From Candidatus Parcubacteria bacterium (GTDB lineage: Bacteria > Patescibacteriota > Minisyncoccia > Phycocordibacterales > Zambryskibacteraceae): a stretch of 50,897 nt of DNA. The stretch covers positions 1 to 50,897 of the forward strand of contig JAIFWJ010000002.1 in NCBI GenBank assembly GCA_019661865.1. Reading direction: 5' to 3'. Shown here in pieces: positions 5,328-37,477 of the stretch (the first letter of the stretch is position 1; each line of letters opens with the position of its first letter). Made by a program: the position numbers and the translations under genes. Under the pieces are notes generated by a model. That model saw nothing but the letters and a program-made list of their open reading frames with translations. It did not search any database and was not told the origin of the DNA.

Positions 5328-6800
5328 ATGACACTTAAGCCAAAATTTAATATCCCCGAAGAGGTGAAGATTATTTCACGCGTCCTTTGGTCTGCCAAGT
5401 TTGAGAACTTTCTTGTCGGAGGATGCGTCCGAGACATCTTGTTGGGAAAAAAGCCCAAGGACTGGGATATCACAACTTCAGCACTTCCTCGAGAGATAGA
5501 AGCCTTATTTGAAAATACATTTTATGAAAATGCATACGGCACTGTCGGAGTGGTAAACGACACAACTACAGATTCAACACTCAAGGTTGTAGAAATTACT
5601 CCGTATCGTACTGAGTCTGGGTACTCAGATTTTCGTCATCCTGATGGAGTAAAGTGGGCTAAGACTCTAGAAGAGGACCTCAAGCGTCGTGACTTCACCA
5701 TAAATGCGCTCGCCTTAGATATAGAAAAAGTAGAATTAATTGATCTCTTCGACGGAGAGAAAGATCTTAAGAAGAATGTTATACGAACAGTTGGAGATCC
5801 GAACGAGCGCTTCACTGAAGATGCACTCCGCATGCTTAGAGCTCTGCGCTTCGCTTCTGAACTCGGCTTCGCTATTGATAGTGATACGCTTCTTGCAATA
5901 GATAAAAATAAAAATCTGCTTGAACATGTTTCTAAAGAGCGCATAAGAGATGAATTCGTGAAGATCATTATGTCCGACAATCCCTCGGTGGCACTCGGAA
6001 TCGCTACACAACTTGGATTACTCCAGTATATTTCTCCGGAATTTGAGAGGGGAGTGGGTATGGAGCAGAACAAGGCACATGCATACACTGTCTGGGAGCA
6101 TTTACTCCGCTCACTTGACCATGCGGCTAAGAAAAATTACCCTCTTCATGTACGCATCGCGGTCCTTCTCCATGATATAGCCAAGCCTCATACACGTAAG
6201 TGGCAGAACGAACAGTGGACTTTCTACGGACACGATGTAGTGGGGGCAAAAGTGACCAAGCAGATTCTCACAGATCTCAAGTTCCCAAAAGAAATTATAG
6301 ACAAGGTGCTGAAGCTCGTGCGCTGGCATATGTTCTTCTCCGACACGGAGACCATTACGCTCTCTGCAGTCCGTCGAATGGTGAGAAACGTTACCCCGGA
6401 GTTAATCTGGGATCTTATGGATGTCCGTGCAGCAGACCGCATCGGCACTGGAAGGCCTAAGGAGAGTCCATACAGACTCAGAAAGTATCACTCCATGATA
6501 GAAGAAGTGATGCGAGATCCCATATCAGTAAAGCAGCTCAAAGTAAGCGGGGGAGATGTCATGAAGATCGCGAGCATTACTCCTGGTCCAAAGATTGGGT
6601 TTATTCTAGAAATTCTTCTTTCAGAAGTTCTAGATGATCCTAAGCGAAATGAAACAGGCTACCTAGAGGAAAGAGTTAAAGAACTTGCAACCCTTCCTGA
6701 AAATGAGCTCAGGAAACAAGGAAGTGAGGCTCGAAGCAGGAATGAAAGTGAGGACGAGAAAGAAAGCGAGGAGATAAAAAAGAAATTCGGAGTGAAATAA
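5328..6800 (+). CDS. cca: CCA-adding tRNA nucleotidyltransferase with HD domain
   Basis: VGGCVRD...KDWDI, RRDFTINA, EDALRMLRALRF and LLHDIAK motifs. Confidence 0.92.
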   Translation: MTLKPKFNIPEEVKIISRVLWSAKFENFLVGGCVRDILLGKKPKDWDITTSALPREIEALFENTFYENAYGTVGVVNDTTTDSTLKVVEITPYRTESGYSDFRHPDGVKWAKTLEEDLKRRDFTINALALDIEKVELIDLFDGEKDLKKNVIRTVGDPNERFTEDALRMLRALRFASELGFAIDSDTLLAIDKNKNLLEHVSKERIRDEFVKIIMSDNPSVALGIATQLGLLQYISPEFERGVGMEQNKAHAYTVWEHLLRSLDHAAKKNYPLHVRIAVLLHDIAKPHTRKWQNEQWTFYGHDVVGAKVTKQILTDLKFPKEIIDKVLKLVRWHMFFSDTETITLSAVRRMVRNVTPELIWDLMDVRAADRIGTGRPKESPYRLRKYHSMIEEVMRDPISVKQLKVSGGDVMKIASITPGPKIGFILEILLSEVLDDPKRNETGYLEERVKELATLPENELRKQGSEARSRNESEDEKESEEIKKKFGVK

Positions 6801-7214: not shown

Positions 7215-8744
7215 TTATCGAGCAAACTCAATAGCCCTGGCCTCACGGATTACATTAACTTTGATCTCTCCTGGGTACTTGAGCTCTCTTTCAATACGTA
7301 CAGCGATCTCTCGAGCAAGTTTCTTAGCCTCAAGATCACTAATCTTCTCAGGAATGACGAAAACTCTAATCTCTCGGCCAGCTTGTAAGGCGTAGGCTTT
7401 CTCCACTCCTTCGAAACTTCCTGCAATATGCTCCAAGTCCAGGAGACGCTTAAGATAATTCTCCACCGTGTCTCGCCTTGCTCCAGGTCTTCCACCAGAT
7501 ATAGCATCAGCAGTCTGCACGATTATGGACTCGACGGTTTCATAGGGATACTCACCATGGTGAGCTTGCATAGCTTTAATGATATCCTCCGAAACTCCGA
7601 ACTTTTGTAAAATTTTCCTTCCAATCTCCACATGAGTTCCTTGGACCTCGTGATCAAGCGCCTTACCGATGTCATGAAGTAGTGACCCGGTTTTAGCTAC
7701 AGCCACATTGGCTCCGAGCTCCTCGGCAATCATGCCGGAGAGATGGGCCATTTCTATGGAGTGCTCCAACACATTCTGTCCATATGATGTACGGAAATGA
7801 AGTCTGCCTAAGATAGCCAGAATCTTGGGATCCAAGTTATAAACTCCTGCCTCGAAGGCAGCAGCTTCACCTCTCTCCTTTATAATTTTATTTACTTCCA
7901 CACGGGCTTTATCCACGAACTCCTCAATCTTGGCTGGCTGGATGCGACCGTCTTGAATAAGATTATCAAGCGCGAGCTTGGCCACTGCACGACGTACTGG
8001 GTCGAATGAAGAAAGAGTGATAGAGCCCGGTGTATCATCAACTATCACTTCTACTCCTGTAGCCCGTTCGAAGGCTTTTATGTTCCTTCCTTCCTTACCG
8101 ATTATCTTTCCTTTAATTTCATCTGTAGGGAGGGGGACCGAGGTGGCCATAATCTCTCCAGAAACTGTAGTTGCGAGACGTTGTATAGCAGTAGCCAAGA
8201 TTTCCTGAGCACGAGAGGCAAGTTTCTCTTCACCTTGTGTCTCCAACTTCTGCATTCTCACTCTGAGATCCTCTTCGTTCTCTTCCTCTAAAGTTTTTAC
8301 CAGCTCATTTCGAGCTTCGTCTAAAGAGAGCTTGCTTATCCTTGAAAGTTCCTTAGTCCGTGCTGAAAGAAGCTTGTCAGCATCATCTCTAAGAGTCTCG
8401 ATCTCATCTATTCTTTCCTTTATAGCCTCAACCTCCTTATCGATATCAGTTTGGCGCTTATCTAAGAACTCTTCCTTTTTTATCAAACGATCTTCAGCTT
8501 TCTGAATTCTTTCCTCACGTTCGTGTATAGAAACTTCAGCCCTTTCTAAGACTTCCTTGGACTGCTCTTCCGCTTCATCTATGATTACCTGTGCTTCCTC
8601 GCGAGCCTTGAGCTCCATCTGCTTAATGTCTAGCTCCATGGAACCCTTCTTCCCGAGAGCAATTATAAGACGCAGCAAATACCCAAAGCCGATTCCGGCC
8701 GATGCGGATAGTAATGCTAAAAGTAGGGCAAGCTTAAGCGACAT
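7215..8744 (-). CDS. rny: Ribonuclease Y
   Basis: N-terminal TM, coiled coil, KH (KGKIIGKEGRNI), HD (LLHDIGK) and RPGARR. Confidence 0.97.
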   Translation of the reverse strand: MSLKLALLLALLSASAGIGFGYLLRLIIALGKKGSMELDIKQMELKAREEAQVIIDEAEEQSKEVLERAEVSIHEREERIQKAEDRLIKKEEFLDKRQTDIDKEVEAIKERIDEIETLRDDADKLLSARTKELSRISKLSLDEARNELVKTLEEENEEDLRVRMQKLETQGEEKLASRAQEILATAIQRLATTVSGEIMATSVPLPTDEIKGKIIGKEGRNIKAFERATGVEVIVDDTPGSITLSSFDPVRRAVAKLALDNLIQDGRIQPAKIEEFVDKARVEVNKIIKERGEAAAFEAGVYNLDPKILAILGRLHFRTSYGQNVLEHSIEMAHLSGMIAEELGANVAVAKTGSLLHDIGKALDHEVQGTHVEIGRKILQKFGVSEDIIKAMQAHHGEYPYETVESIIVQTADAISGGRPGARRDTVENYLKRLLDLEHIAGSFEGVEKAYALQAGREIRVFVIPEKISDLEAKKLAREIAVRIERELKYPGEIKVNVIREARAIEFAR

Positions 8745-8887
8745 TTAGGTCGATCCATCTGAGAAACGGGATATGTAGGTTTAGTCAGGCGGTAAGGTCG
8801 GGAAGGTCGGTAGGAACAACAAACGTTTCAAGTTTTATTACAATGGAACATCCACAGAGTACTACACCAAGGTATCCTTGTCTAGGA

Positions 8888-9463
8888 TTAGATAACTTTG
8901 TCTATAATTCCGTATTTCTTGGCCTCATCTGCACCCATAAAGAAGTCTCTATCCTCATCCTTTTCAACCTTAGATAGAGGCTGGTCAGTGGCTTCAGACA
9001 TCATTTTGGACAACCTTTTCTTGAGTCTTACATACCATTCTGCACGTATGGCAATATCTGAAGTCTGCCCCTCCGCGCCTCCGAGTGGTTGGTGGATCAT
9101 AATCTCCGAATTAGGTAGAGCAAAACGCTTACCCTTTTTACCATTGGCAAGGATATGGGCACCCTTGGATGCCGCCATTCCGTCACAAACCGTAGAAACA
9201 TCTGGCTTAATATGATTCATGGTGTCGATGATGGCGAGACCGGCAGTGACAGAGCCTCCGGGGGAGTTTATATATAGAGATATATCCTTCTTAGGATCTT
9301 CAGACTGGAGGAAGAGAAGTTGGGCAATGATGATGTTTGCAACATCGTCATCTATATGACCAGCAAGGAAAACAATACGCTCACGCAAGAGCCGCGAGTA
9401 TATGTCGTAGGCCCTCTCACCGAACTGACTCTTCTCTATAACCGTGGGGATTAAATATGCCAT
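8888..9463 (-). CDS. clpP: ATP-dependent Clp protease proteolytic subunit
   Basis: [21 protein letters not shown](K)GA, MIHQP and DRD motifs. Start set at MAYLIP. Confidence 0.95.
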
Positions 9464-9529
9464 TGGACCCATACAATATCTGAAACCTGATCTCAAATCA
9501 AGTATAAAAAATCCGCCTTGTTAGACGGA

Positions 9530-10792
9530 CTAAGGGAGGACAATAGCTGTCACTCTTCTGTTTTTCTCGAGCAGAGAAACAACCTCTCTAACATTCTCGA
9601 TTGTTAAAGACTGCCTTCGTTCCATCTCCTCAATAGATGAAATGATTCTGCCCCAATAGGTGAGGTCGTCCATTGAGTCAGATACCAAACTCTTTGCGTT
9701 CAAATCGGTTAGAGTATATGACTTCACCATCGAAGTTTTCTGCCGTTCGAAAGCATCGAGATCATTGACGACATCTTGAATGGACTTGTCGACTAGATCA
9801 TCGATGAGATCAGCACTTTCATGCTGAAATGAATCACACTCTATTTTAATTTCTCGAAGAAAGGTGTGGTTCCTACATCTCACACTCACATTGTATGTAA
9901 GGTTCTTTTCCTCTCTGATGCGCTTGAAGAGCAGAGGACGCAACATTAAAGCATACAGGAGAGGAGCGGTGTACTGCATTGTTCCAGGTAGAAGAGCGAA
10001 TGATGTATATGATCCAGTGGGCTTCCCATCTGAAACTCCAAGCTTCTCCTGCCGACTTACTCTGTACACAGACTGAAGTGGACTAGGAGCCTTATCTAGA
10101 GCTTCGGGAAGGGGATTTCTCTTCCCGGGTTTCTCAGCGGCCAATGGAGTAGTCGAAATGATTTTCACAAGTTCACGCAAATTCATTCCTCCCACGACTA
10201 CCATGCTCACATTTGCCGGGACATAGTGAGTGTCATAGTAAGTCTGAACATCCTTTTGCGTAAATCTTGAGATCGTTTCGGCATATCCAAGAGGACGTAA
10301 GTGTCTTGATCGATGGTGTCCATTGAATAAACTTCTTCCCACTTCGCGGATGAGGTCGAACTCCCAAGGAAACTGTGGTCTGGACCTTAGTTCTTCCTCG
10401 AGTACGATCTTCCTTTCTTTCTCCAACCCTTCACTCATCTCTTCTGTGAAAAGAAGATTACCAAGGATTGAGAAAGCGTTAAGTGCAGTTGAGGGATCGT
10501 TCGGGAGAGAACAGGTATAGCGTATGTATGGGAAAGCAGTAGCACCCAGAGTTACTTCTCCTCCATGCCGATCGAAAAACTTATCGACGAAATCAGATCC
10601 AGTGACTAAATTGGCTACCACCATGTGTTCTGTGAAATGAGCCAGACCTTCAAGATCACTCGGATCCTGGTCTGCACCACTGTGAACTTGAAAACCGACT
10701 CTGATCCATGGTCTATTTGGCCAGTGGGCACAATGAACCGTTAACCCGTTCGGAAGCACTTCTGTTTCGAATTCAGCATATGGATCCCACAC
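9530..10792 (-). CDS. M16 (insulinase) family zinc peptidase
   Basis: GLAHFTEHM (HxxEH) and LFKRIREEKNLTY motifs. GTG start with a GAGGTG SD. Confidence 0.9.
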   Translation of the reverse strand: MWDPYAEFETEVLPNGLTVHCAHWPNRPWIRVGFQVHSGADQDPSDLEGLAHFTEHMVVANLVTGSDFVDKFFDRHGGEVTLGATAFPYIRYTCSLPNDPSTALNAFSILGNLLFTEEMSEGLEKERKIVLEEELRSRPQFPWEFDLIREVGRSLFNGHHRSRHLRPLGYAETISRFTQKDVQTYYDTHYVPANVSMVVVGGMNLRELVKIISTTPLAAEKPGKRNPLPEALDKAPSPLQSVYRVSRQEKLGVSDGKPTGSYTSFALLPGTMQYTAPLLYALMLRPLLFKRIREEKNLTYNVSVRCRNHTFLREIKIECDSFQHESADLIDDLVDKSIQDVVNDLDAFERQKTSMVKSYTLTDLNAKSLVSDSMDDLTYWGRIISSIEEMERRQSLTIENVREVVSLLEKNRRVTAIVLP

Positions 10793-20298: not shown

Positions 20299-21351
20299 TT
20301 AGAAAGGATTCCTCGCACCGCGAACCTCGAAGTGAAGATGTGGGCCAGTAGTCTTACCAGTGAGTCCTATCGCTCCGATAGTTTGTCCTTGTACCACAGA
20401 ATCACCCACAGCTATGTCGTTACGCGAGAGGTGTGCATAGAGAGTTTGTGTGCCATTATCGTGCGAAACTACAATATAGGATCCATATCCTCCGTTATAT
20501 CCACCGATTTTAGAAATTATGACTTTGCCAGCGGCCGAGGCCCAGATTGGAGTGCCGACTGGTGCGCCGATGTCTATACCATTGTGTCCATGAAGCCCTT
20601 GAGTCTTTATGCCATCAACTGGTCTCATATAGTAACCAGCATAGTTCGGAAGTCTCGAGCCCACGGGTAGAATTCCTCCCCCAGATATGCTGCCTGAGGA
20701 GCCCGAACTACTAGGTACTGAATCTATTTCACCATCAGGTACGATCACAATCTGCCCAGTAACAAGCTTGGAGCTTGGTGCAAGGTCGTTATAGGCCAAG
20801 ATGTCACTAACATCTGCACCGTACTTCTTGGCAATGCTTTGAACAGTATCTCCAGAGCGCACAGTGTGACGAACTCCAGAAATAGGCAGGATTACAAGCT
20901 CCATGCCTGGGTTTATAGTGGTACCAATATCGTTTGCCCATATAATGGTGCTCTTCGAGACTCCGAACATCTGAGCAATGGAAGAAAGCGTATCTCCTTT
21001 ACGAACCACATATACAGAAATCTGTCCGGTGCCAGACTTGCCGTAGTCTATGAAGGCCTCGCCGCTATCCTTCTCTGTCGAGAGAGCAGAATTATCTACT
21101 ACCGCAAGTTGTGAACCACTCTTGGCGTTGGGATTTGTATTTAAAGGCGCTTCAAGAAGACTCATAGTCTGAGAGTTCTTATGCACAATCGTCTCAGGAG
21201 CCCGGAAGAGCTTAGAGGCAGAGGAGCGGGCCAACACTAGAGCTGGCACAGCAACCAAAATAAAAAGCCCGAGAATAAACTTCGCTCGAACTTGGCCACG
21301 ATTTTTCTTATTTAAGACGCGAAATTCATTATTACCCGGGCGTCTCTTCAA
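20299..21351 (-). CDS. 2xLysM + M23 peptidoglycan endopeptidase
   Basis: YVVRKGDTLSSIA and HTVRSGDTVQSIA LysM repeats; HNGID, YAHL and HLHFE M23 motifs. Start uncertain. Confidence 0.93.
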   Translation of the reverse strand: MKRRPGNNEFRVLNKKNRGQVRAKFILGLFILVAVPALVLARSSASKLFRAPETIVHKNSQTMSLLEAPLNTNPNAKSGSQLAVVDNSALSTEKDSGEAFIDYGKSGTGQISVYVVRKGDTLSSIAQMFGVSKSTIIWANDIGTTINPGMELVILPISGVRHTVRSGDTVQSIAKKYGADVSDILAYNDLAPSSKLVTGQIVIVPDGEIDSVPSSSGSSGSISGGGILPVGSRLPNYAGYYMRPVDGIKTQGLHGHNGIDIGAPVGTPIWASAAGKVIISKIGGYNGGYGSYIVVSHDNGTQTLYAHLSRNDIAVGDSVVQGQTIGAIGLTGKTTGPHLHFEVRGARNPF

Positions 21352-26248: not shown

Positions 26249-27980
26249 ACTTAAGAAAAATCTGGTGAGAAAGATTACGACAGTTCTAGTTATTTTTTCT
26301 GTTATAGGTGTAAACTTTTTACCTACGTTTACTCCTAGAGCCAATGCTCAGTTTTCTTCCCTTATAAATAAAGCCCTAGTACAACCCGTAACAGATATTA
26401 AGACCCTTGCTAAATCAATAGCCGATGGCATTGCCATGCACTTGGCACAAAGAATGGTGGATGAAATGGTGAAGTCGACCATTCGTTGGGCTAACACCGG
26501 TTTCGATGGATCTCCAGCATATGTCACAAATCCAGTGCAATATGCAGCAAGCATAGCCAATGGCGTAGCAGGAGATGTCATTAAGGGCACAGATCTTGGC
26601 TTCCTCTGCTCACCCTTCCAAGCCCAAATAAAAATTTCACTTCAGAAATATTATGTTGGAAGTTCGTATCAGCCACAGTGTACTCTTACTCAGATTGGAG
26701 TAAATATAGATAACTTTTACCAGGACTTTAAACAAGGTGGGTGGAATGCTTGGATAGCTATGAGCCAGGATGGAGGAAACCCCTATAGTGCATACATAAA
26801 CGCCCAAGGAGTCTTCGACGATAAGGTGGCTTCAGCTTTAGCAGCTGTGAACCAGAAGCTCGATTGGGCAAGCGGATTTAAGTCTAAGGGAGACTGTATT
26901 GCATATAACCCATCCCAGTCAGACATTGATGATTATGTAAATGGAGGCTTTATAACAGAACATGACACAACACGAAAAATAGACCCGAGTATGCCACCAG
27001 GCGCCTGTATTGAACACGGTCCAGATAAGACTCCTGGAGTTATCATTAAAGATCAGCTAGACAAGGTTCTACCTTCTGGCTTGGATAAGCTCATTACAGT
27101 CCAACACGTCGAGCAGCTCGTTGGTGCCTTCGCTAACGGGCTCCTCACTCGATATGTCTTCGGCCCGAAAGGCCTATTCAGTAAAGACTATGGAGACCAC
27201 TTCGGTGCAAGCAACCAGGCCCCAACAGGTCCGGCAGAACAAGAAGCTACATGTTCTGCCAACAGAGATACTGCCATAACCAATGAGACGGAAGTGACCT
27301 GGTCTGTGACCTCAAGCTTGGGCACACATCTTTCATATACATGGACAGGTGAAGGGCTTGAGAGTGCCACCTCAAGCTCCGCTAAAGTTATCTACACCAC
27401 TCCAGGATCTAAGACTGCATCTGCTACCGTCACAGCAAACCAGGTAGATACCGAAGGAAACATTATAGGCATCTCGGCTGTAAGAACAGTACCCTGTGAA
27501 GGAAACGTGATAGTCACCCAATTTACTCCACTTGCCATGTCATGCTCGGTAAACACTGCCCGTGCCGGAAGAGGAGTGCCGGTAACATGGAAAGCTACTG
27601 TGACCGGAGGATCTGGAGCCTTTACCAAGATCCAGTGGGGAGGAGATGAAACGGATATACCTGGAACACATACATCTGTAGTGCCGCCGATATTCTTATA
27701 CAACCCAAGCTCTGGTATTCCTCCGACTCAGGAGAGAGCATCTGTAAATACGGCAGGCAACACCACCACCCTTACTATCTCTTATGGCCTAGGGCTACAA
27801 TCCATAACCACGATAACTAATAACGGAAGTTCAACAGACATCACACTTAGTAGGCCTTACACCGATAGCGCTCACATACCTGGAGAGAGAGGAGCCAACC
27901 TCACTCTCCTCGATAACGACTCGAGTTTACCAGTGGTTGTGAACCAGGCCTGTACTAATTCAGTGTATATTAGTGATTAA
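26238..27980 (+). CDS. Exported Cys-containing protein with two C-terminal PKD-like repeats
   Basis: Signal ending ANA-Q, 'LCSPF' and 'GGWNAW' motifs, two 'C....VTW...W.G' repeats. Confidence 0.78.
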   Translation: MESKLKKNLVRKITTVLVIFSVIGVNFLPTFTPRANAQFSSLINKALVQPVTDIKTLAKSIADGIAMHLAQRMVDEMVKSTIRWANTGFDGSPAYVTNPVQYAASIANGVAGDVIKGTDLGFLCSPFQAQIKISLQKYYVGSSYQPQCTLTQIGVNIDNFYQDFKQGGWNAWIAMSQDGGNPYSAYINAQGVFDDKVASALAAVNQKLDWASGFKSKGDCIAYNPSQSDIDDYVNGGFITEHDTTRKIDPSMPPGACIEHGPDKTPGVIIKDQLDKVLPSGLDKLITVQHVEQLVGAFANGLLTRYVFGPKGLFSKDYGDHFGASNQAPTGPAEQEATCSANRDTAITNETEVTWSVTSSLGTHLSYTWTGEGLESATSSSAKVIYTTPGSKTASATVTANQVDTEGNIIGISAVRTVPCEGNVIVTQFTPLAMSCSVNTARAGRGVPVTWKATVTGGSGAFTKIQWGGDETDIPGTHTSVVPPIFLYNPSSGIPPTQERASVNTAGNTTTLTISYGLGLQSITTITNNGSSTDITLSRPYTDSAHIPGERGANLTLLDNDSSLPVVVNQACTNSVYISD

Positions 27981-27981
27981 G

Positions 27982-30207
27982 ATGAAGAAAAAACTCCCTT
28001 ACATATTAATCTCAGTACTGGTATTCTCTACAATCTTTCTTGTCCCTCATATTACTCACGCTCAAATAATCTCATCTATTACTGGTGGTGCTGCTAAGTG
28101 GTTACTTGCATTACCAGGAACCATTGCTACCAAGTATTTACTCCCTCTAGTAGGATACCTCACTGCTTTCGCGGGACTGATTCTTAACTATGTTATTTAT
28201 CAGACTGTACTCCACATGTCTGATTTGTTCCCTAACGCTAGCATCATTAATGATACTTGGAATGTTATTCGTGATGTTGCCAATATGTGCTTCATCTTCT
28301 TGCTTCTGTACTCCGCTATTCAAACCATCTTTGGCCAAGGTAAAACCCGAGAGTTAATTGTAAATATTATCATCGCAGCCTTGTTGGTTAACTTCAGTCT
28401 CTTCTTTACTAAAGTTATAGTGGATTCTTCAAACATTTTGGCCATTTCTATCTATAACTCTATTGCTCCAGGTGCTATAAGTACTCCTGACGTAACTAAC
28501 GCGGGGCTCTCGAATTCTGTCATGGCTCCATTACAGTTACAGACTATTTATAAATATACCCAACCACTCGACGGGGTTAAGTTACTTACTATAGGAGTGC
28601 TGGGTTCGATTTTCGCTCTTGTTGCGGCATTCGTATTTTTCGTGGCGGCAATAATGTTCGTGGTGAGATTCGTAGTAATCCTTTTCTTAATGATACTTTC
28701 TCCCGTGTGGATACTTGGAGGCGTGATCCCGGGACTGAAGGGGATACAGAAACAATGGCTGGAGTCACTAGTTGGCCAAGCTGTCTTCGCCCCTATATTT
28801 TTCTTATTGGTCTGGATTGTGCTAAAGATCGGCAATGCTTTATACAAACCGGGAAGCATTGCAGATGCTCTACTGAATACCGCTGCAGCGGGAGCGAACA
28901 ATACTAGCCAGATCAACACTAGTGGTAGCACCATGGGTGTAATCTTCAGCTTCGTCATTATGATAGGAATGCTCATCGCAGCCCTCATCATTTCTAAGAG
29001 CTTCTCCACCCGAGGAGCTAAACAGATTGGACAACTTACCGGCTTTGCCGCAGGTGCAGTCATGGGTGGAGCAGCAAGCCTCGGCAGAAAATCCTTTGGT
29101 GCTGCTGGTTCTAAATTTGCTGATAGTGAAGCCCTGAAGAACCGTGCTCAACAGGGGGGCTTAAGCGGCTTTGCTGCTCGGAGAGCTCTCGACCTTAGCA
29201 GTGCTGCGTCGAAAACAAGCTTCGATCTTCGAGGCGCGGGTGGCCCAGCTAAGGGTCTTGTGGGTATAGCAGGGGGAGGCAAGGCGGGTGGCCAAGGAGG
29301 TTATGCCAAACAAGTTGCTGACGAGACCAAGAGAAAGGAAGAGAAGGTCAAACTGTATACGCAGACGTCAGATATCACTAAGGACAAAGCCAAGCGGGAT
29401 CTAGAAGCGGCTAAGAAGATGGAGTTACAGGATCCGGAAACGCTAACCGCCTGGAAAGCAGAACAAAACAAGAGATCACAAGAAGCTAGAGAGGCAGAAA
29501 GAGAGTTGGCCAACGCCCAAGCACGAGGTGCAGACCCAGATACTATTACAGCATTAAGGAAGAAATCCAATGATGCTAATAATGAAAGACAGAAAATTCA
29601 GACCATTCGAGGATTTAAAGACGCAAGGATTGAAATGGCTCAGAAGCGAGCTGATAAGCTTGAGGGAATAAATAAAAAAGAATCAGACAGTAGAAAAGCT
29701 GACCTTAACAAAGAAGAAGAGGCGAAATTAAAAAATGATCCGGCAATCAAGAGACAGGTGGATCTTAAAAAAGAGATGGAGGATCTTACTAAACAAATCG
29801 CTACTCAGACAGGCACGATTAAAGATGATATGCAGCGTGAACTCGACGCCAAAAGTAAGTTATTTGAAACGGTAGCAAAGGAAGCAGAGGAGAGAAGTAA
29901 GACCATCAAAGCAGAATTCCAAGAAAGAAGAGATCTTATAAGAGAAGAGAAGAGTCTAGGTGAGGAGAGAAAGGAAGCTGCCATAAAGAGCATGCTAAAC
30001 CCGAGCATAATAGACAGTGACAGAATACTCTTTGTTGGCCCGGTTAAAAGATCTAATCTCCAAGCTGCAGCAAACTTAAGAAAAGGTAAGAAATCAATCA
30101 GGGAGCGGGTTGAGGAACTGATGAAAGACAATGAAGATATTCCAAAGAAGGACGAAGAGAGGAAAGAGGGAGGAGAAAAACCTGAAGGTGAGGGCGAAAA
30201 GAAATAA
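27982..30207 (+). CDS. VirB6/TrbL-like polytopic membrane protein with Gly/Ala linker and charged coiled-coil tail
   Basis: W...RD.AN, LLVNFSLFFTK..VD.SN and RFVVILFLMILSP...W motifs, 6-7 TM helices, adjacent to PrgI/VirB4. Confidence 0.72.
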   Translation: MKKKLPYILISVLVFSTIFLVPHITHAQIISSITGGAAKWLLALPGTIATKYLLPLVGYLTAFAGLILNYVIYQTVLHMSDLFPNASIINDTWNVIRDVANMCFIFLLLYSAIQTIFGQGKTRELIVNIIIAALLVNFSLFFTKVIVDSSNILAISIYNSIAPGAISTPDVTNAGLSNSVMAPLQLQTIYKYTQPLDGVKLLTIGVLGSIFALVAAFVFFVAAIMFVVRFVVILFLMILSPVWILGGVIPGLKGIQKQWLESLVGQAVFAPIFFLLVWIVLKIGNALYKPGSIADALLNTAAAGANNTSQINTSGSTMGVIFSFVIMIGMLIAALIISKSFSTRGAKQIGQLTGFAAGAVMGGAASLGRKSFGAAGSKFADSEALKNRAQQGGLSGFAARRALDLSSAASKTSFDLRGAGGPAKGLVGIAGGGKAGGQGGYAKQVADETKRKEEKVKLYTQTSDITKDKAKRDLEAAKKMELQDPETLTAWKAEQNKRSQEAREAERELANAQARGADPDTITALRKKSNDANNERQKIQTIRGFKDARIEMAQKRADKLEGINKKESDSRKADLNKEEEAKLKNDPAIKRQVDLKKEMEDLTKQIATQTGTIKDDMQRELDAKSKLFETVAKEAEERSKTIKAEFQERRDLIREEKSLGEERKEAAIKSMLNPSIIDSDRILFVGPVKRSNLQAAANLRKGKKSIRERVEELMKDNEDIPKKDEERKEGGEKPEGEGEKK

Positions 30208-30922: not shown

Positions 30923-31348
30923 ATGCGTTTCCAAGTTCCTCAGTTCATTGAAGTCGAGGACAAGATCTTCGGCCCTCTTACCTTCAAACAGTTCATTTAC
31001 ATCGCTGGTGGGGTAGGAATATGTGTAATTCTATTCACCTTTCTACCGAAATTCTTCGCCCTTTTACTCTCAGCACCAATTGTAGCTCTGGCTGGCTCAC
31101 TGGCATTTTATAAAGTTAACGGCAAACCTTTCGCCTCGCTGCTTGAAGCTTTTTTAAAGTACGAATTTTCAGAGAAGTTATATGTATGGAAGAAGCAAGA
31201 CAAGACACCGGTCCACACCGAGATGAAGAGGGAAGCCAGTGAAGTTTATATCCCTAAGCTCTCTTCCTCCAAGCTCAAGGATCTTTCATGGAGCCTCGAT
31301 GTTCAGGACAATCAGAATCCTGTAACACAGGAAGAAACCAAGATATAA
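30923..31348 (+). CDS. PrgI family (VirB3-like) membrane protein
   Basis: F.VPQFIEVEDKIFGPLTFKQF plus two TM helices. Confidence 0.85.
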   Translation: MRFQVPQFIEVEDKIFGPLTFKQFIYIAGGVGICVILFTFLPKFFALLLSAPIVALAGSLAFYKVNGKPFASLLEAFLKYEFSEKLYVWKKQDKTPVHTEMKREASEVYIPKLSSSKLKDLSWSLDVQDNQNPVTQEETKI

Positions 31349-31357
31349 TTGAGATAA

Positions 31358-31996
31358 ATGGCACCTAGTAAAAGCAGCACCCAGGAGTTTGTACCCATTC
31401 AAGAAGTACGCGACGGCATCTTGGTACTTAAGGATGGCGGCATGCGTGCGGTAGTGCTCGCCTCGTCACTTAACTTTTCTTTAAAATCAGATGATGAGAA
31501 GAACGCAATACTATTCCAGTTTCAAGATTTCCTAAACTCCCTCGATTTCTCCATCGAAATAGTAATTCAGTCTAGGAAACTAGATATCAGACCCTACATC
31601 GCCCTACTCGAAGAACAACATAAGAAGCAACTAAACAGCCTTTTAAAGATCCAAACGGAAGAATATATCGAGTTCGTGAGAAACTTCGCTGAGAATACCA
31701 ATATCATGACTAAGAACTTCTTTATCGTGGTGCCTTATGACCCGGCAATCATAGGCTCTAGCACGGTCTCTGGGATCTCAAGCCTCATAGGCGGTAAGAA
31801 AACTACTCCTGCACAAGCGAGTGAGATGAGTTTCGAGGAAAACCGTACACAGCTTGAGGAAAGAGTGGGGGTGGTAGAACAGGGACTTGTGCGCACCGGT
31901 ATACGAGTAGCAAGGCTTGGTACAGAAGAATTGATCGAGCTCTTCTACAAGGCATTTAACCCCGGAGAAACTGAGAAGCCCCTTAAAGCAGCTTAA
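31358..31996 (+). CDS. TraC/VirB4 N-terminal-like protein
   Basis: LNF.LKS.DE......FQ.FLNSLDF..IQS and KNFFIVVPY motifs; lies between PrgI and the ATPase. Confidence 0.72.
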   Translation: MAPSKSSTQEFVPIQEVRDGILVLKDGGMRAVVLASSLNFSLKSDDEKNAILFQFQDFLNSLDFSIEIVIQSRKLDIRPYIALLEEQHKKQLNSLLKIQTEEYIEFVRNFAENTNIMTKNFFIVVPYDPAIIGSSTVSGISSLIGGKKTTPAQASEMSFEENRTQLEERVGVVEQGLVRTGIRVARLGTEELIELFYKAFNPGETEKPLKAA

Positions 31997-32005
31997 AATA
32001 AAGTT

Positions 32006-33838
32006 ATGGCACTTTTTTCAGGATTATTTAGTAAAGGAGAGGAGAAGAGGAAAGATATTCCTTCCATATTGCCTAAGGAAATTTTCCAAGCCTCGGTACT
32101 CGAGCTTAAAGACATTATTGCTCCTTCTGCGCTTAAAGTAACACCAAAAGAATTAAACCTGGGTGAGAAAATTACTAGATCCTTCTTCGTTATATCGTAT
32201 CCCAGATTCTTAACAGAGAGTTGGTTCTCACCGATTATAAATATGGATAAGGTTTTCGATGTATCCATCTTTATCCATCCGATAGAGACTTCTAAAGTTC
32301 TCCGCCAATTTCAAAAGAAGGTGGCCGAAGTTCAAAGTCAGATCCACACCAGGGAAGAAAGAGGTCTTGTGCGTGACCCCATGCTCGACGTAGCCTACCA
32401 AGACCTCGAAAGCTTACGTGATCAACTCCAACAGGCACAGGAGAAGCTTTATGATGTAGGTCTCTACATAACTATTTATGGAGACAATGAAGAAGGGCTC
32501 GATAAGATCGAATCCGAGATAAAGTCTATTCTCGAAGCCAAGCTTGTATACATAAAGCCAGCACTCTTCCAACAAGAAGAAGGGTACAAGAGCACACTTC
32601 CATTAGGAAATGACCTTCTGGCAGTCCACTCCAAACTTAATTCTTCACCACTTTCATCCCTTTTCCCATTTACATCCTTCGACCTTACCTCAGACAAGGG
32701 CATTCTGTATGGTATTAACCGCCACAACTCCTCCCTTGTCCTCTTCGACCGGTTCTCACTGGAGAACTACAACTCCATCACCTTCGCCAAGTCTGGTGCG
32801 GGTAAGTCATATGCCACTAAGCTTGAGATTCTGCGTACGCTTATGTTCGACACAGAGGTCATATGCATGGATCCAGAAAACGAGTATGAGTACCTCGCTG
32901 AGGCCGTAGGCGGAAGGTATTTTAAAATTTCTCTTAACTCCGAGCACCACATAAATCCTTTTGACCTGCCTCTACCCGGCCCTGACGAGTCGGCTGCCAA
33001 TGTGCTGCGTAGTAACATCATTAACCTAGTGGGACTCTTCAGACTTATGATGGGAGGACTTACAGCAGAGGAAGATGCCATCATAGACCGTGCCATCACC
33101 GAGACTTATGCACTTAAGGATATTACAGCTGATTCTGACTTCAGAAATATAGAACCTCCACTTATGTCTGACTTCGAGCTTGTACTTTCTGGTATGGAAG
33201 GAGGGGACTCCTTAGCCCAAAGACTTACTAAGTACACTAAAGGTACATGGGCCGGATTCATAAACAAACCGACCAATGTAGATATAAATAAGAAGTTCGT
33301 GGTTTTTTCTCTCCGTGATATGGAAGACGAGCTCAAGCCCATCGCCATGTACATTGTCACTCACTACATCTGGAATGCTATTCGTAAGGAACTTAAGAAA
33401 AGACTACTTGTTATCGATGAAGCTTGGTGGATGATGAAGTCTGACGACACCGCCTCCTTCCTTATGGGACTTGTGAAGCGCGGAAGAAAGTACTACTTGG
33501 GCGTGGCTACCATTACCCAAGATGTAGATGACTTCTTGAAGTCTCCCTACGGATTACCTATCATTACTAACTCATCTATCCAGGTACTTCTTAAACAGTC
33601 TCCGACGATTATCGATAAACTCCAAACTACTTTTAATCTTACCGACGAAGAAAAATATTTACTCTTGGAGTCTGATGTAGGAGAGGGGATATTCTTCGCC
33701 GGGCTTAAGCACGTAGCCATTAAGATAATTGCTTCTTACACAGAAGACCAAATTATCACATCCGATCCTTCGCAGGTTCTGGCCATAAAGAAGGCTAGGG
33801 AATTAGAACAACATGGAAACACAAGAGAAGGGCAGTAA
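32006..33838 (+). CDS. VirB4-like T4SS ATPase
   Basis: GILYGIN, Walker A AKSGAGKS, DPENEY, INPFD, Walker B LLVIDEAW and RGRKY...ITQ. Confidence 0.9.
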   Translation: MALFSGLFSKGEEKRKDIPSILPKEIFQASVLELKDIIAPSALKVTPKELNLGEKITRSFFVISYPRFLTESWFSPIINMDKVFDVSIFIHPIETSKVLRQFQKKVAEVQSQIHTREERGLVRDPMLDVAYQDLESLRDQLQQAQEKLYDVGLYITIYGDNEEGLDKIESEIKSILEAKLVYIKPALFQQEEGYKSTLPLGNDLLAVHSKLNSSPLSSLFPFTSFDLTSDKGILYGINRHNSSLVLFDRFSLENYNSITFAKSGAGKSYATKLEILRTLMFDTEVICMDPENEYEYLAEAVGGRYFKISLNSEHHINPFDLPLPGPDESAANVLRSNIINLVGLFRLMMGGLTAEEDAIIDRAITETYALKDITADSDFRNIEPPLMSDFELVLSGMEGGDSLAQRLTKYTKGTWAGFINKPTNVDINKKFVVFSLRDMEDELKPIAMYIVTHYIWNAIRKELKKRLLVIDEAWWMMKSDDTASFLMGLVKRGRKYYLGVATITQDVDDFLKSPYGLPIITNSSIQVLLKQSPTIIDKLQTTFNLTDEEKYLLLESDVGEGIFFAGLKHVAIKIIASYTEDQIITSDPSQVLAIKKARELEQHGNTREGQ

Positions 33839-34130
33839 AATACTTGATGGAGAATGGGAAGTTTTGACCTATGCAGTTATTTTCCTTGATGGAATACAGA
33901 TAGTGTTTGATTTTACCCTCCCTGGACTAAATGAGGTTTTAGATCCGTTTGTGGGTTTAGGGTTAGCAATTTATTTCATTATTAGAGGGGTGAGGATGAC
34001 ACTAGGAAGGGTATTTATGTTAATCGGCTTCGGTATAGGAGAGGAGATTCCCTTCGTTGATGCATTGCCGTTCTGGACTCTTGAAGTTCTAAGGGTTAAG
34101 AGTTGGGATATGCAGGACAAAAATTCTTGA
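33813..34130 (+). CDS. Small hydrophobic membrane protein
   Basis: 105 aa with 'EEIPFVDALPFWT' motif. Overlaps the end of VirB4. Confidence 0.72.
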   Translation: METQEKGSKILDGEWEVLTYAVIFLDGIQIVFDFTLPGLNEVLDPFVGLGLAIYFIIRGVRMTLGRVFMLIGFGIGEEIPFVDALPFWTLEVLRVKSWDMQDKNS

Positions 34131-34150
34131 TCTTCCTATATAATAGATTT

Positions 34151-35176
34151 ATGTATAAATTGTTCTTGGTGTGGACTTTACCTGTGTTTCTCTTCACCTC
34201 TTTTGCCTTCACCCAGACGACTGTTCAGGCTCAAGTAGACATTCCTGAAGTTCCCGATGAACAGATTCCGACTGACATAACTCTGGAACCAATTTCTTTC
34301 CTAATAGTACCTGAGACTCCGGCCCCTGGAGATCTGGTCACAGTAAGCATTGAGTCTACGAACTTGGATTTAGACTCAGCCATTATGCGTTGGACGGTTA
34401 ATGGAGGACTGGTAAAAAGCGGCAAGGGTATCAAGCAGATTAACGTCACGAATGGTGGCTCGGGCTCTCAGACAACCGTAAGTGTAAGTATTTCTTCCGG
34501 CGGAGCCACCATTACCCGGTCAACTACCTTCGGGGCTGGTAATGTAGATCTTCTCTGGCAAGGAGACACCTATGCTCCTCCTTTCTATGCTGGGAGACAC
34601 CTCTGGACTCACGGAAGCCGCCTAACTCTACTCGCTATCCCAGACTCAAGTCTTGGAAGCGCCTCGGCTCTTATATATAGATGGAGCCAGAGCGGCACAA
34701 TTCTTGGAGCTTCCTCTGGTGCAGGGAGGAGTTCTCTTTCTTTCTATGACTCAATCCTATCTTTACCTCAGGATATATCTGTAGATGTAATGACTGACCA
34801 AGACACCGTCGTGGCGACTAAAACCATCCACCTACAACCCACAGATGTCACAACTCTTCTCTACGAGGACAATCCACTTATTGGTCTGCTTTTAAATAAA
34901 GAAGTAGACGGATCATATGGTCTTACTGATAAAGAGGTAACCTTCTCAGCCATGCCTATGTTCTACTCTGTTCAAAATAGAACAGACAAGAGAGTGAGTT
35001 ATACCTGGAGCACCAACAGTGGAGCTGCGAACACCGGCAACCACATAACACTCCGCATTCCAGATAACTCGAGTGGCCAAGCCCAAGTGGGAGTTAACAT
35101 AAATAATTCTGCTAACCTCCTACAAACTGCTTCCAAAAGCTTTTTAGTAAAATTCGGTAACACACCGAGCTTCTGA
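34151..35176 (+). CDS. Exported Ig-like beta-rich protein
   Basis: ATG 34151 lies 6 nt after TATAAT. Signal peptide and repeated 'Y.W' Ig-type motifs. Confidence 0.78.
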   Translation: MYKLFLVWTLPVFLFTSFAFTQTTVQAQVDIPEVPDEQIPTDITLEPISFLIVPETPAPGDLVTVSIESTNLDLDSAIMRWTVNGGLVKSGKGIKQINVTNGGSGSQTTVSVSISSGGATITRSTTFGAGNVDLLWQGDTYAPPFYAGRHLWTHGSRLTLLAIPDSSLGSASALIYRWSQSGTILGASSGAGRSSLSFYDSILSLPQDISVDVMTDQDTVVATKTIHLQPTDVTTLLYEDNPLIGLLLNKEVDGSYGLTDKEVTFSAMPMFYSVQNRTDKRVSYTWSTNSGAANTGNHITLRIPDNSSGQAQVGVNINNSANLLQTASKSFLVKFGNTPSF

Positions 35177-35177
35177 T

Positions 35178-36248
35178 ATGAACAACGTGAAGAAAATCTT
35201 TTTATTAATATTCACACTTGCGACTCTAAGTCCTTTTACTCTTCTTCATGCACAAACCAAAACAGGTTGTCCCGCTGGGCAATACTGTCTTCTCGCGCCT
35301 CTCCCGGTGGGGAATCCTACTGGAGGTAATATAGATCATGTAACAGTAACCGGCGCAGGAGACTATATTGCAAACCTGGTGAAGCTCATCATAGCTATAG
35401 CAGGTGGTCTCGCTGTCTTGCGTATAATCATTGGAGGGTTTCAGTACATCACCTCTGAGGCTTTCAGCAGTAAGTCCGCTGCGAAAGATACTATCCAGAA
35501 CGCTGTCCTGGGATTCCTCCTTGCTGCTGGATCATTCTTAATATTGAATACAATAAACCCGGATTTAACCAACATTAATTTGACACTGGAAAATGTCGGA
35601 TCAACTCAAAAACTCGACACATCCTTCAGTGGCGGGACAGACTCCACAGAACCTGACGGAACAAGTGGTGGTAAAACTGCGGCAGAGGTGGATTGTTTGG
35701 TTGACTGTGTACCAATACCTGACGAGATTCCCCACAAACCTCCAGGCCCAGCTGGCAGCCCATCGGCGGGGTGTCTTACTCCCGGACCGTGTTATGTTTA
35801 TTCAGGCCTTGCGACTAAGTTATCTGCATTAAATGAGGCCCTCCAACACAACCCTTATAATTTAGACTGGGAGGTTACGGAAATGTTTCCGCCTGTAGCT
35901 AGTCATGATAGTGATTGCCACAAACCAAACAATGGAAATACGGGAAAATGCGTTGACGCAACCCTTAGAAGTCCCACAACTCCAGAGAACACTGTAAAGT
36001 TTTTCATAGCCATAAATAAATTTGTCAGCCCAAGTTTCCAATGGGAGGAGCCGGACAATGCTTCAAGAGACGCCCGCAGACTTGCTCTTAAACAATACAT
36101 CCAGTCCCGCCCTCCATCGGACTTCAACATAACTGCGTCTCAGGTTCCTCAATTCATAACTGATATAATTTGCAAAGTTAAGACTGTCGCTCACGCAACA
36201 GGTGAGCATGTTCACATTAACTGGGCTGGTCAAGCACCATCATGTTAA
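35178..36248 (+). CDS. TrbC/VirB2-like pilin fused to a Cys-rich putative zinc peptidase domain
   Basis: Two-TM pilin signature AVLRIIIGGFQYITS...AKDTIQNAVLG...ILNTINPDL. C-terminal H..CH...G.CVD...EHVH. Confidence 0.7.
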   Translation: MNNVKKIFLLIFTLATLSPFTLLHAQTKTGCPAGQYCLLAPLPVGNPTGGNIDHVTVTGAGDYIANLVKLIIAIAGGLAVLRIIIGGFQYITSEAFSSKSAAKDTIQNAVLGFLLAAGSFLILNTINPDLTNINLTLENVGSTQKLDTSFSGGTDSTEPDGTSGGKTAAEVDCLVDCVPIPDEIPHKPPGPAGSPSAGCLTPGPCYVYSGLATKLSALNEALQHNPYNLDWEVTEMFPPVASHDSDCHKPNNGNTGKCVDATLRSPTTPENTVKFFIAINKFVSPSFQWEEPDNASRDARRLALKQYIQSRPPSDFNITASQVPQFITDIICKVKTVAHATGEHVHINWAGQAPSC

Positions 36249-37477
36249 AAAAGATTCTTTTAATACTAATTGTTCTAGTTATCCTCGGCGGTGGTTGGTA
36301 TTACTACTCACACAGGAGCACTAATCCACTCGATGGGGGAACTATGGGGACTGACAACCCGTTTGGTAATGCTCCGGGTGGAAACTCTGGTGGAAGTAAC
36401 AGCGGTTCAAACTCCGGCCCAGGTACTGGCTCTGCATCCTCAGGGTCTACAAGCACTGGAGGCACAACGGCAAATGTAGCCCGACTCTTCAAGATCTCTT
36501 CTGACCCTGTGTCAGGCGCAGTCTTCATCACTAGGAATAAGTCTCAATATATACGTTATGTAGACCGAGCTACGGGTCACATATATGATGTGAATCCACT
36601 AAATCTCGAGAAAGTTTCTGCTACCAACAATACCCTTCCAAGAATTTATGACGCTTTATGGAAATCAGATGGAACAAGTGTTATTTTCAGAACTCTAGAG
36701 AGTGGTAGTGACACCGCGGACAACACCTTCATCACTCTTATAGCTTCCAAGTCGACTTCTACAGAACCTCTTTATACTGTTACTTCCACTTCAATGCGCG
36801 GCAATGTGGCTGACATGAAAGTAGGGCCAGGGAATAGTCTGGCTTATGTATTAAGCGATACCGGAAGTGTGGTTGTTTCAAACATCGATGGTACGAAGCC
36901 TACTAGCATTTATTCTTCTCCGTTTACTCAGTGGCGCCTTAACTGGTCTGACGCAGCACATGTGACGCTTACTACTGCCGCTAGTGCATTTGTCGATGGA
37001 TATTCATACAACATAAACATAAGTACAGGAGGAAGAACCAAACTTCTCGGCCCGCTCCAAGGCCTCACTACTCTTATGAGCCCAGACAACCTACGGGTTG
37101 CCTACTCATACAACGACGTAAACGGTATGAAATCATACATAGAAACTATTTCATCGAAATCTTCCGAGGAGTTGGTACCCAACACTCTTGTAGAGAAGTG
37201 CGCCTGGGATATAAAAAATAAAAATGTTATTTACTGCGGAGTGCCAAGCACTGGAGTAGTAGCAGGGGAACCAGATAAGTGGTACCAAGGGATAACACAT
37301 TACTCGGATAGAATTTGGAAATATGATACTACAAATCAGTATGCAGAACTTCTTACTGATCCGAAAAAAAGCTTCAACGTCGATCTAGACGTCATGAAAC
37401 CTAAGATATCCCCTGATGGAAAGTACATTGTGTTTATAAACAGAAGTGACTTATCACTCTGGGCACTTTCACTTTAA
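36242..37477 (+). CDS. Membrane-anchored beta-propeller (TolB/WD40-like) protein
   Basis: N-terminal TM helix, Gly/Ser linker, and WKSDG, SPDN and SPDGKYIVF blade motifs. Confidence 0.75.
   Translation: MLKKILLILIVLVILGGGWYYYSHRSTNPLDGGTMGTDNPFGNAPGGNSGGSNSGSNSGPGTGSASSGSTSTGGTTANVARLFKISSDPVSGAVFITRNKSQYIRYVDRATGHIYDVNPLNLEKVSATNNTLPRIYDALWKSDGTSVIFRTLESGSDTADNTFITLIASKSTSTEPLYTVTSTSMRGNVADMKVGPGNSLAYVLSDTGSVVVSNIDGTKPTSIYSSPFTQWRLNWSDAAHVTLTTAASAFVDGYSYNINISTGGRTKLLGPLQGLTTLMSPDNLRVAYSYNDVNGMKSYIETISSKSSEELVPNTLVEKCAWDIKNKNVIYCGVPSTGVVAGEPDKWYQGITHYSDRIWKYDTTNQYAELLTDPKKSFNVDLDVMKPKISPDGKYIVFINRSDLSLWALSL

Follow-up and report, generated by a model that had tools for sequence, protein, structure and literature searches.

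What is a pilin of a type IV secretion system (T4SS) doing with a second, enzyme-like domain at its C-terminus? The question is raised by a gene in a stretch of 50,897 nucleotides from Candidatus Parcubacteria bacterium (assembly GCA_019661865.1, contig JAIFWJ010000002.1), hereafter the window, which corresponds to bases 1-50897 of contig 4 in a genome of 598,658 bases, 9 contigs and 97.3% completeness. The gene lies on the forward strand at 35178..36248, starts with ATG and encodes a protein of 356 residues (P0001), in which a pilin hairpin is followed by a linker and by a Cys-rich domain. An earlier reading of the same letters, here called the sequence-only reading, had proposed a T4SS-type pilin fused to a putative zinc peptidoglycan peptidase that would cut the host cell wall at the site of contact. 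We are highly confident in the fold and the architecture, that is, in a pilin with a C-terminal domain whose fold is that of the Hedgehog/DD-peptidases (LAS). This domain is a new family, without any curated model, within a known fold, and it is joined to a known type of pilin in a new combination.

The domain (aa 171-356; 35688..36245, +) contains six cysteines, and its fold was assigned from an AlphaFold2 model, structure searches and profile matches. The model, computed on an alignment of 104 rows (A1), has a predicted local distance difference test score (pLDDT) of 94.3 and a predicted template modelling score (pTM) of 0.90. When this model was compared with the PDB by Foldseek, a check suggested along with the sequence-only reading, ranks 1-11 were all taken by Hedgehog N-domains (E 0.029-0.12, prob 0.82-0.98) and rank 12 by MepA; a fold unrelated to M15 is not what emerged. 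The VIA structure search, which is independent of Foldseek and was run over 48,161 chains, gave ten best chains that all have the Hedgehog/DD-peptidase fold (Z 8.4-5.3). They are two N-domains of Sonic Hedgehog (ShhN; 6rmg_B, Z 8.4, root-mean-square deviation 3.0 Å over 117 aligned residues, and 7e2i_G, Z 8.4, 3.0 Å over 115), MepA (1tzp_A, Z 8.0, 3.4 Å over 147), fly Hh (2ibg_E, Z 7.7, 2.9 Å over 111), VanX (1r44_A, Z 6.8, 3.0 Å over 115), LdcB (4jid_A, Z 6.3, 4.4 Å over 124), a Streptomyces Zn DD-peptidase (1lbu_A, Z 5.6, 3.3 Å over 105), VanXYc (4mur_A, Z 5.5, 5.1 Å over 120), VanXYg (4muq_A, Z 5.5, 4.7 Å over 114) and VanYB (5zhf_A, Z 5.3, 4.6 Å over 117), with the phage endolysins Ply500, LysB4 and T5 next in the ranking (Z 4.9-4.6). 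The fold call carries weight because one superfamily tops two independent structure searches. Among viral models, Foldseek found none at E <= 0.001 and a few rows named M15A or Hedgehog at E 0.36-2.2.

Sequence profiles converge on the same fold and support the M15/Hedgehog-DD-peptidase guess of the sequence-only reading. A profile of 25 domain-only sequences (A2) had 26 matches in the PDB at E <= 10, and the 18 best all belonged to Sonic or Indian Hedgehog N-domains (E 0.0085-0.083), redundant entries of just two proteins that do not amount to 18 independent confirmations. In the alignment between A2 and Shh, helix-WqVTEawPPtveHks-sCHqnGtCvDa faces helix-LRVTEGWDEDGHHSEeSLHYEGRAVDI, which sets H248 and D260 of P0001 on the H-x6-D motif of Shh. 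The domain-only profile did better than the full-length A1 profile, which reached Hedgehog at E 0.42 and VirB2 (8cue) at E 0.73. Compared by hhalign with 24 VanY domains of the same order (A6), A2 aligned in the same register (E 0.002, prob 13.6), and it gave nothing with the single sequence of E. coli MepA (prob 0.12). Language-model features gave leads to these families too, all scoring below 0.9.

How widespread and how well conserved is this domain? An exhaustive HMMER scan with aa 165-356 (192 aa) against 1.84 billion representative proteins gave, with the query counted, 108 matches at E <= 1e-3, 26 at E <= 1e-10 and 4 at E <= 1e-30. Most of these relatives are about 300 residues long, with the match in the C-terminal half, and their sources name them "pilin", "seg" or "hypothetical protein". 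The 104 rows of A1 leave out the repetitive outliers P0021, P0073 and P0093 and the broken fragment P0011. The motifs quoted in the sequence-only reading are indeed present in the translation of P0001, with WEVTEMFPPVASHDSDCHKPNNGNTGKCVD at aa 231-260 and GEHVHI at aa 342-347. Within A1, the best-kept positions are P238 (104/104), E235, H243 and D260 (103/104 each) and E290 (102/103), followed by W231 (94/104), H248 (89/104, with Q in 14), H344 (84/103), E343 (61/103) and H346 (56/103, with S in 46). The number of matching representatives and these near-invariant motif residues show that the conserved domain is not due to chance. The cysteines are kept just as strictly: C173 and C177 in 98/101 rows each, C199 in 96/97, C205 in 96/102, C247 and C258 in 103/104 each, and all six together in 90 of the 104 rows; the domain is probably stabilised by disulfides.

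Curated resources do not hold this family. No NCBIfam model (whole protein, E <= 0.1) and no PHROGs entry (C-terminal domain, E <= 10) covers the domain, the curated LAS models (HH_signal, Peptidase_M15_x, VanY, M74) do not match it in P0001, and no Pfam family of LAS type was found among 107 relatives. Whole P0001 had no phmmer match to PDB sequences at E <= 10, and a word-index search with aa 165-356 retained the query alone among 213 candidates. A reference search with PF08291 found none in the window's own genome and 2 of 301 in the phylum, one truncated and one masked, both of which were dropped.

Does the domain carry an active site? According to passages of PMC6027127, the zinc ligands in Shh are H141 and D148 (H-x6-D) together with H183 of an H-X-H motif, and the catalytic base is E177. 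P0001 itself departs from the canonical H-X(6)-D: its putative zinc-ligand loop is H248-x11-D260 (35919..35957, +), placed by the HMMER alignment to Shh SLHYEGRAVD and by the hhalign alignment to VanY SEHQLGTxVD. The loop insertion that the sequence-only reading had to assume is real. The spacing over the 104 rows is x6 in 53, x10 in 17, x11 in 25 and of other lengths in 9, which makes 42 rows with x10 or x11. The insert sits between C247 and C258, which flank the His and the Asp, and the two cysteines may staple the zinc loop. The candidate catalytic base is E290 (36045..36047, +), a Glu on the strand that follows a helix; its putative equivalence to E177 of Shh is by motif order, GL.A.YE here and GFDWV.Y(E) in a peptide given in a passage of PMC6027127. 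Some 50 helical residues (helices 294-310, 313-316 and 320-332), fewer in many relatives, separate E290 from the last beta-strand (344-348 in the model), where E343-H344-V345-H346 (36204..36215, +) supplies both an H-x-H (H344-V-H346) and an E-x-x-H motif. Positions 344 and 346 read H-x-H in 38 rows, H-x-S in 46, S-x-H in 10, N-x-H in 7 and A-x-H in 1, with at least one His in 102 of 104. P0001 and its three nearest relatives, P0002-P0004, retain every catalytic residue, and P0001 is read as an active peptidase because the full set is kept.

The N-terminal part is that of a T4SS pilin, as had been claimed from the letters, given a PF18895 match, a helical hairpin in the model and T4SS genes as neighbours. 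PF18895 (T4SS_pilin) matches aa 61-118 of P0001 with E 3.2e-5 and 24.4 bits, which is 2.2 short of the curated cut-off of 26.6 bits; it also matches 88 of 107 representative relatives at E <= 0.01, many of them above the cut-off and up to 50.1 bits. A full-length AlphaFold2 model (pLDDT 86.1), built on a 90-sequence alignment, begins with a signal helix (aa 4-17) and a small beta hairpin, continues with helices 60-92 and 96-126 and a region of pLDDT <50 within aa 137-162, and ends in the compact C-terminal domain. The first helix belongs to a probable Sec signal peptide (aa 1-25; 35178..35252, +), whose near-invariant A25 is conserved in at least 90% of the 90 aligned relatives and which is probably cleaved after LHA. 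The two hydrophobic helices form the VirB2/T4SS-pilin hairpin (aa 60-126; 35355..35555, +). P0001 thus combines two marks of a T4SS pilin, the signal peptide with a hairpin of two hydrophobic helices and the gene neighbourhood of VirB4/VirB3 type. Structural search of the hairpin was set aside as a means of identification: many unrelated helical hairpins matched, and the archaeal conjugation pilin 8dfu_B (Z 6.4 with the full-length model) was one among them. Between the hairpin and the C-terminal domain runs a disordered linker rich in Ser, Thr and Gly (aa 137-170; 35586..35687, +), with pLDDT <50 at aa 137-155 and 157-162. In the standard VirB2 topology, a cleaved signal peptide and a two-helix hairpin leave the C-terminus outside the membrane; since P0001 has this arrangement, its C-terminus is expected on the outer membrane face, and the C-terminal domain would lie outside the cytoplasm. 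The six conserved Cys of the domain and the DsbA-like genes of this genome and of locus L072, described below, also favour that location.

The gene follows virB4 at a distance of 1.3 kb and belongs to a PrgI-TrsD-VirB4 cluster beside yidC, rnpA and dnaA, an arrangement that matches the Paceibacteria T4SS cluster near virB4, PrgI and dnaA described in passages of PMC12102498. The order is a UvrD-like helicase, KsgA, four open reading frames (ORFs), PrgI, the TrsD-like gene, VirB4, a 105-aa ORF, a 357-aa ORF, the pilin fusion and a 411-aa ORF, after which come yidC and rnpA on the opposite strand, then dnaA. By family matches the T4SS core genes occupy 30923..33838 (+), with a PrgI/VirB3-like gene (30923-31348, +; 51.4 bits), a TrsD/VirB4-N-like gene (31358-31996, +; 212 aa, matching the N-terminal part of VirB4/TrsD) and the VirB4 ATPase gene (32006-33838, +; 610 aa). 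VirB4 function is here divided over the 212-aa ORF and the 610-aa ATPase ORF, which fits the separate TrsD component reported for such systems. The fusion follows its upstream partner gene (34103..35176, +; 357 aa, no Pfam match, syntenic in 24 of 68 related loci) after a gap of 1 nt and overlaps by 7 nt with its downstream partner gene (36242..37477, +; 411 aa, syntenic in 26 of 68), which has an N-terminal membrane helix, a possible beta-propeller and a weak DPPIV_N match of 19.4 bits, under the cut-off. No curated family matches the 105-aa ORF, and none matches the four ORFs between KsgA and the PrgI-like gene above cut-off; one of these four (27973-30207) has a weak CD3337/EF1877 match (E 0.0012).

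Two further groups of genes deserve mention. An M23 peptidase gene (20299-21351, -; PF01551, 106 bits) precedes the T4SS cluster by about 4 kb, and the other two of the three M23 peptidases in the genome are encoded elsewhere. On contig 3, locus L002 (1146-3255) is a tandem array of six short ORFs of the two-helix pilin-like type (113, 137, 89, 98, 121 and 95 aa), which resembles the VirB2 arrays described in passages of PMC12102498; two of the six weakly match the pilin part of P0001 (E 8.6e-4 and 0.021). These short products may be the bulk pilins, with P0001 a minor or specialised subunit.

The pilin-LAS architecture is shared by about 100 representative clusters at 50% identity, all from genomes of Parcubacteria/Paceibacteria type, with sources named as Parcubacteria, Paceibacterota, Yonath-, Zambryski-, Kaiser-, Wolfe- and Moranbacteria. 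Scanning GTDB species genomes with a pattern yielded 68 related loci, in which synteny was assessed by tblastn of window proteins (E <= 1e-3): the gene order of the window recurs in 25, with VirB4 collinear at -3.3 to -5.2 kb, and YidC is collinear in 28 and DnaA in 27. In other loci the fusion stands among housekeeping genes such as ClpB, MiaA and ParB, and in L049, L052 and L072 it is in tandem with a second long pilin fusion. In L072 a gene for a DsbA-like thioredoxin (5417-6109, +) lies upstream of the tandem Cys-rich pilin fusions (8115-10258); the window genome also has a DsbA-like thioredoxin gene, on contig 7 at 70531-71049. Longer forms occur: in the 1101-aa protein of L065 (7073-10375, +) the hairpin of the pilin occupies aa 809-878 and the Hedgehog-like domain forms the C-terminus, and in a 475-aa frame of L084 (8954-10378, +), possibly over-extended at its 5' end, the hairpin and the C-terminal domain are separated by a thrombospondin type 3 repeat. 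When a single sequence was used as query (E <= 0.01), the domain was found in 33 of 401 genomes of the order, and the genomes matched by the A2 profile include 4 of the 6 others of the same family. At E <= 1e-10, VanY (PF02557) domains were found in 75 of the 151 genomes sampled from the order and not in the window genome.

Is the same pilin always joined to the same head? The survey of swapped C-terminal domains that had been suggested for this pilin did turn up other heads, on closely related pilins and at the same locus. A search with the pilin part (aa 30-135) gave 21 proteins, query counted, named "pilin" or "TrbC/VirB2 family protein" by their sources. Judged by motif, 4 of the other 20 carry the domain of P0001 (type A). 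Ten (P0109, P0112-P0114, P0116, P0118 and P0121-P0124) end in a tail of type B (..TGGTEYWLHG..H.PGG.VVDL..HWHV.) or type C (..TSATGGEH..CNHANGYKVDL..NHWD.), which share an invariant His, VDL, Glu and HW followed by H or D, and P0125, P0127 and P0128 have Cys-rich tails. Examples of other heads at the syntenic position, in genomes of the same genus or the same family, are found in L099 (3999-4844, -) and L100 (1519-2655, +). Heads of types B and C have no Pfam match, and the epimerase identity offered by PDB profile matches was rejected as spurious. By hhalign they reach VanY with E 0.0047 and prob 7.5, and the type A domain with prob 0.41; Atlas gave leads only, below 0.9. With support this weak from hhalign, Pfam and Atlas, their LAS/VanY nature is a lead at the level of motifs, and they are possibly VanY-like.

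The exchange is best seen between close relatives. At the same place as the fusion, one genome of the same genus (G067, VirB4 91% identical) has a 281-aa pilin with a type B head, and one of the same family (G236, VirB4 84%) has a pilin of 378 aa that combines a Cys-rich insert with a type B head. A second genome of the genus (G165, VirB4 90%) has a type A head with an S-F-H tail; tblastn aligns this head to that of the window over a 35-residue stretch only, at 34%. From the window to G067, identity falls from 91% in VirB4 and 82% in DnaA to 62% in YidC, 45% in the N-part of the pilin and 40% in the downstream gene, which indicates that divergence is far faster in the exposed parts of the cluster than in its core; the two flanking partner genes are 37-43% identical within the genus, against about 90% for VirB4. 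By these sequence comparisons the head of the pilin is a variable, exchangeable end, and such exchange is expected for a part fitted to a particular partner's surface.

Taken together, these data allow a mechanism to be proposed. P0001 would be exported as a T4SS pilin of VirB2 type and lose its signal peptide, after which the two-helix hairpin would be seated in the membrane or in the pilus, with a flexible linker of about 35 residues tethering a disulfide-stabilised LAS-fold domain of about 190 residues outside the cytoplasm. There H248 and D260 on the loop and H344/H346 on the last strand, together with H243 and E290, would form the zinc site of an active peptidase, held by its tether either on the T4SS filament or on the membrane at the filament's base. 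The head would then cut, or at least grip, the peptide stems or cross-links of the wall where the secretion system meets the partner cell. A partner-directed role is favoured because of the complete LAS active site, the tether outside the cell, the T4SS operon and the exchange of heads between close relatives. The data show the architecture, the fold, the conserved motifs, the synteny and the exchange of heads. Zinc binding, catalysis, a peptidoglycan substrate, incorporation into the pilus and the partner's wall as the target are all steps that we infer, and the whole reading, in which the head would cut or grip the partner's wall from the T4SS filament or from the filament's base, is offered tentatively, with a little less than even credence. 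Cutting of the host wall by P0001, the central idea of the sequence-only reading, is a plausible hypothesis.

A number of observations weigh against this proposal. Pfam has no family for aa 165-356 at E <= 10, Foldseek has no match to the domain in the PDB at E <= 0.001, and a VIA Z of about 8 can be reached on its own by unrelated models. The domain is patchy, with the A2 profile (E <= 1e-5) finding it in 36 of 401 sampled genomes of the order. The full set of E235, H243, H248, D260, E290, H344 and H346 is kept by only 37 of 104 relatives, and the 14 rows with Q for H248 have H-x-S every time. Among the close pilin relatives, P0120 has lost the Glu, both His and the Asp while keeping the five-residue loop insert, and P0110 is likewise degenerate, with most catalytic residues gone; both are likely pseudo-peptidases. 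Given these losses and variants, catalysis is not what the family as a whole conserves. A 21-kDa head on each subunit may also be hard to pack on a pilus, and the six short pilin-like genes of contig 3 could build a filament without P0001. As far as residues can tell, the P0001 copy probably is catalytically competent, and part of the family probably only binds.

Could the enzyme serve the producer instead? In that case it would be a substitute for VirB1, the hairpin anchoring a peptidase that opens the producer's own peptidoglycan for passage of the T4SS or its pilus. The expected position on the outer membrane face, near the machine, would suit this task, as would the lack, among the other genes of the T4SS cluster in the window, of any match to a wall-hydrolase family in Pfam; according to passages of PMC12102498, most Patescibacteria systems with VirB2-like pilins have no recognisable VirB1 wall hydrolase, with no homologue near virB4. 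Housekeeping on a conserved wall of one's own does not, however, predict the swapping of heads between congeneric genomes, the loss of catalytic residues in relatives or a domain confined to 36 of 401 genomes of the order, and three M23 peptidases are already available in the genome, including one whose gene lies 4 kb upstream of the cluster. We consider such a role unlikely.

A similarly low probability attaches to a head that binds and does not cut, that is, an adhesin resembling a Hedgehog ligand or a pseudo-peptidase, which would recognize a partner peptide or glycan and whose zinc site would be structural or vestigial. The incomplete catalytic sets (37 of 104 complete, 46 rows with H-x-S, 14 with Q248) speak for it, as does the place of the degenerate P0120 and P0110 among the closest pilin relatives; Drosophila Hh keeps the fold without the motif, according to passages of PMC6027127, and swapped heads suit a recognition module. 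Yet P0001 and P0002-P0004 keep every catalytic residue, and the near-invariance of E290, H243 and D260 exceeds what a pure scaffold needs.

TrbC/VirB2 pilins are known to be processed at their C-terminus before they are assembled, and the long disordered linker would be a natural site for this. The C-terminal domain might then be cut off during maturation, as a pro-domain or as a released soluble peptidase, leaving a mature pilus without the enzyme. Neither a cleavage motif nor a maturation protease dedicated to such a step was identified, however, and the domain copies that seem to stand alone (P0051, P0077 and P0095), found on contigs of 525-1138 bases, may be fragments, so we judge this quite improbable. 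Weakest of all, and very improbable in our view, is a generic alpha/beta sandwich match of unrelated function, which modest scores (best Z 8.4, best Foldseek E 0.029, hhalign prob 0.12 to E. coli MepA) and the lack of a Pfam match would allow, but structure search, Foldseek and sequence profiles independently give one superfamily, the language-model lead agrees, and the conserved His, Asp and Glu align onto the LAS family's own catalytic motifs.

If the partner-directed reading is accepted, a pilin with a wall-peptidase-like head is a concrete, testable mechanism for breaching or holding the partner's envelope, and the variable head becomes a candidate determinant of partner specificity. This matters for a lineage in which epibiotic growth depends on the T4SS and its pilins, at least in the single Patescibacterium studied by genetics (passages of PMC10633639, Wang et al. 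2023). A wider view, which we regard as doubtful, is that ultrasmall bacteria of Parcubacteria/Paceibacteria type use their T4SS filaments as modular display pili. The pilin of the T4SS cluster would bear, on its flexible tether, an exchangeable head of Hedgehog-like, possibly VanY-like or Cys-rich type that cuts or grips the partner wall and so sets the partner range; head swapping, and catalytic decay in some lineages, would then record an arms race with host envelopes, a part of the same view and no less doubtful. If true, it would add a large, previously unmodelled bacterial branch to the Hedgehog/DD-peptidase fold. In any case the domain family, with its clusters at 50% identity, widens the bacterial side of that fold. 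The T4SS cluster and VirB2-like pilins of Patescibacteria have already been published (passages of PMC12102498, PMC10633639 and PMC12857230). Supplements aside, the passages of PMC12102498 and PMC10633639 do not mention enzyme-like C-terminal domains on pilins, and no description of the pilin-LAS fusion was found in the open literature, a scope that excludes supplements and subscription journals.

How, finally, does P0001 compare with known systems? Its closest counterpart is the Hedgehog N-domain, which is the best structural match (ShhN, Z 8.4) and the sole family matched by a sequence profile (E 0.0085). Hedgehog and the Hh-DD-peptidases (M15A) have the same order of motifs, namely a helix, the VTE strand, a His, H-x6-D, a helix, the Y-E strand and the H-x-H strand, and bacterial Hh-like domains are likewise C-terminal parts of membrane-anchored proteins (passages of PMC6027127). 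In contrast with Hedgehog, the domain of P0001 has no HH_signal or Peptidase_M15_3 match in Pfam, its zinc loop is longer by five residues (x11), about 50 helical residues precede H-x-H, six Cys are conserved, and its fusion partner is a T4SS pilin; in the HMMER alignment, PP of the P0001 family stands opposite the acidic residues that follow VTEGW in Shh. The longest overlap is with MepA (Z 8.0-8.3, 147-151 residues), the murein DD/LD-endopeptidase of E. coli (M74) and an extracytoplasmic LAS peptidoglycan endopeptidase, but the two have no detectable sequence relation (hhalign prob 0.12), and MepA is soluble, periplasmic and not fused to a pilin. The M15 carboxy- and dipeptidases of the VanY, LdcB and VanX type share the fold (Z 6.8-5.3), and the zinc loop of P0001 is in register with the H-x6-D loop of VanY domains of the same order, whose E-x-x-H (EPWH) is mimicked by E343-x-x-H346. 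Unlike VanY, P0001 has TE..PP in place of the SxYR segment (S43 and R46, invariant in VanY) and lacks a Pfam VanY match. With the VirB2/TrbC/T4SS_pilin proteins of Patescibacteria, P0001 shares its N-terminal 135 residues (PF18895) and its location near virB4, PrgI and dnaA (passages of PMC12102498), whereas it carries 220 residues more than the short pilin-like ORFs (89-137 aa) of its own genome. Lastly, the wall hydrolases VirB1, TraG of pIP501 and PrgK place a peptidoglycan-hydrolase-like activity within a T4SS cluster, as P0001 would (passages of PMC12102498). They are, however, separate proteins with lytic transglycosylase or CHAP folds, whereas the domain of P0001 has a LAS fold and is covalently attached to the pilin.

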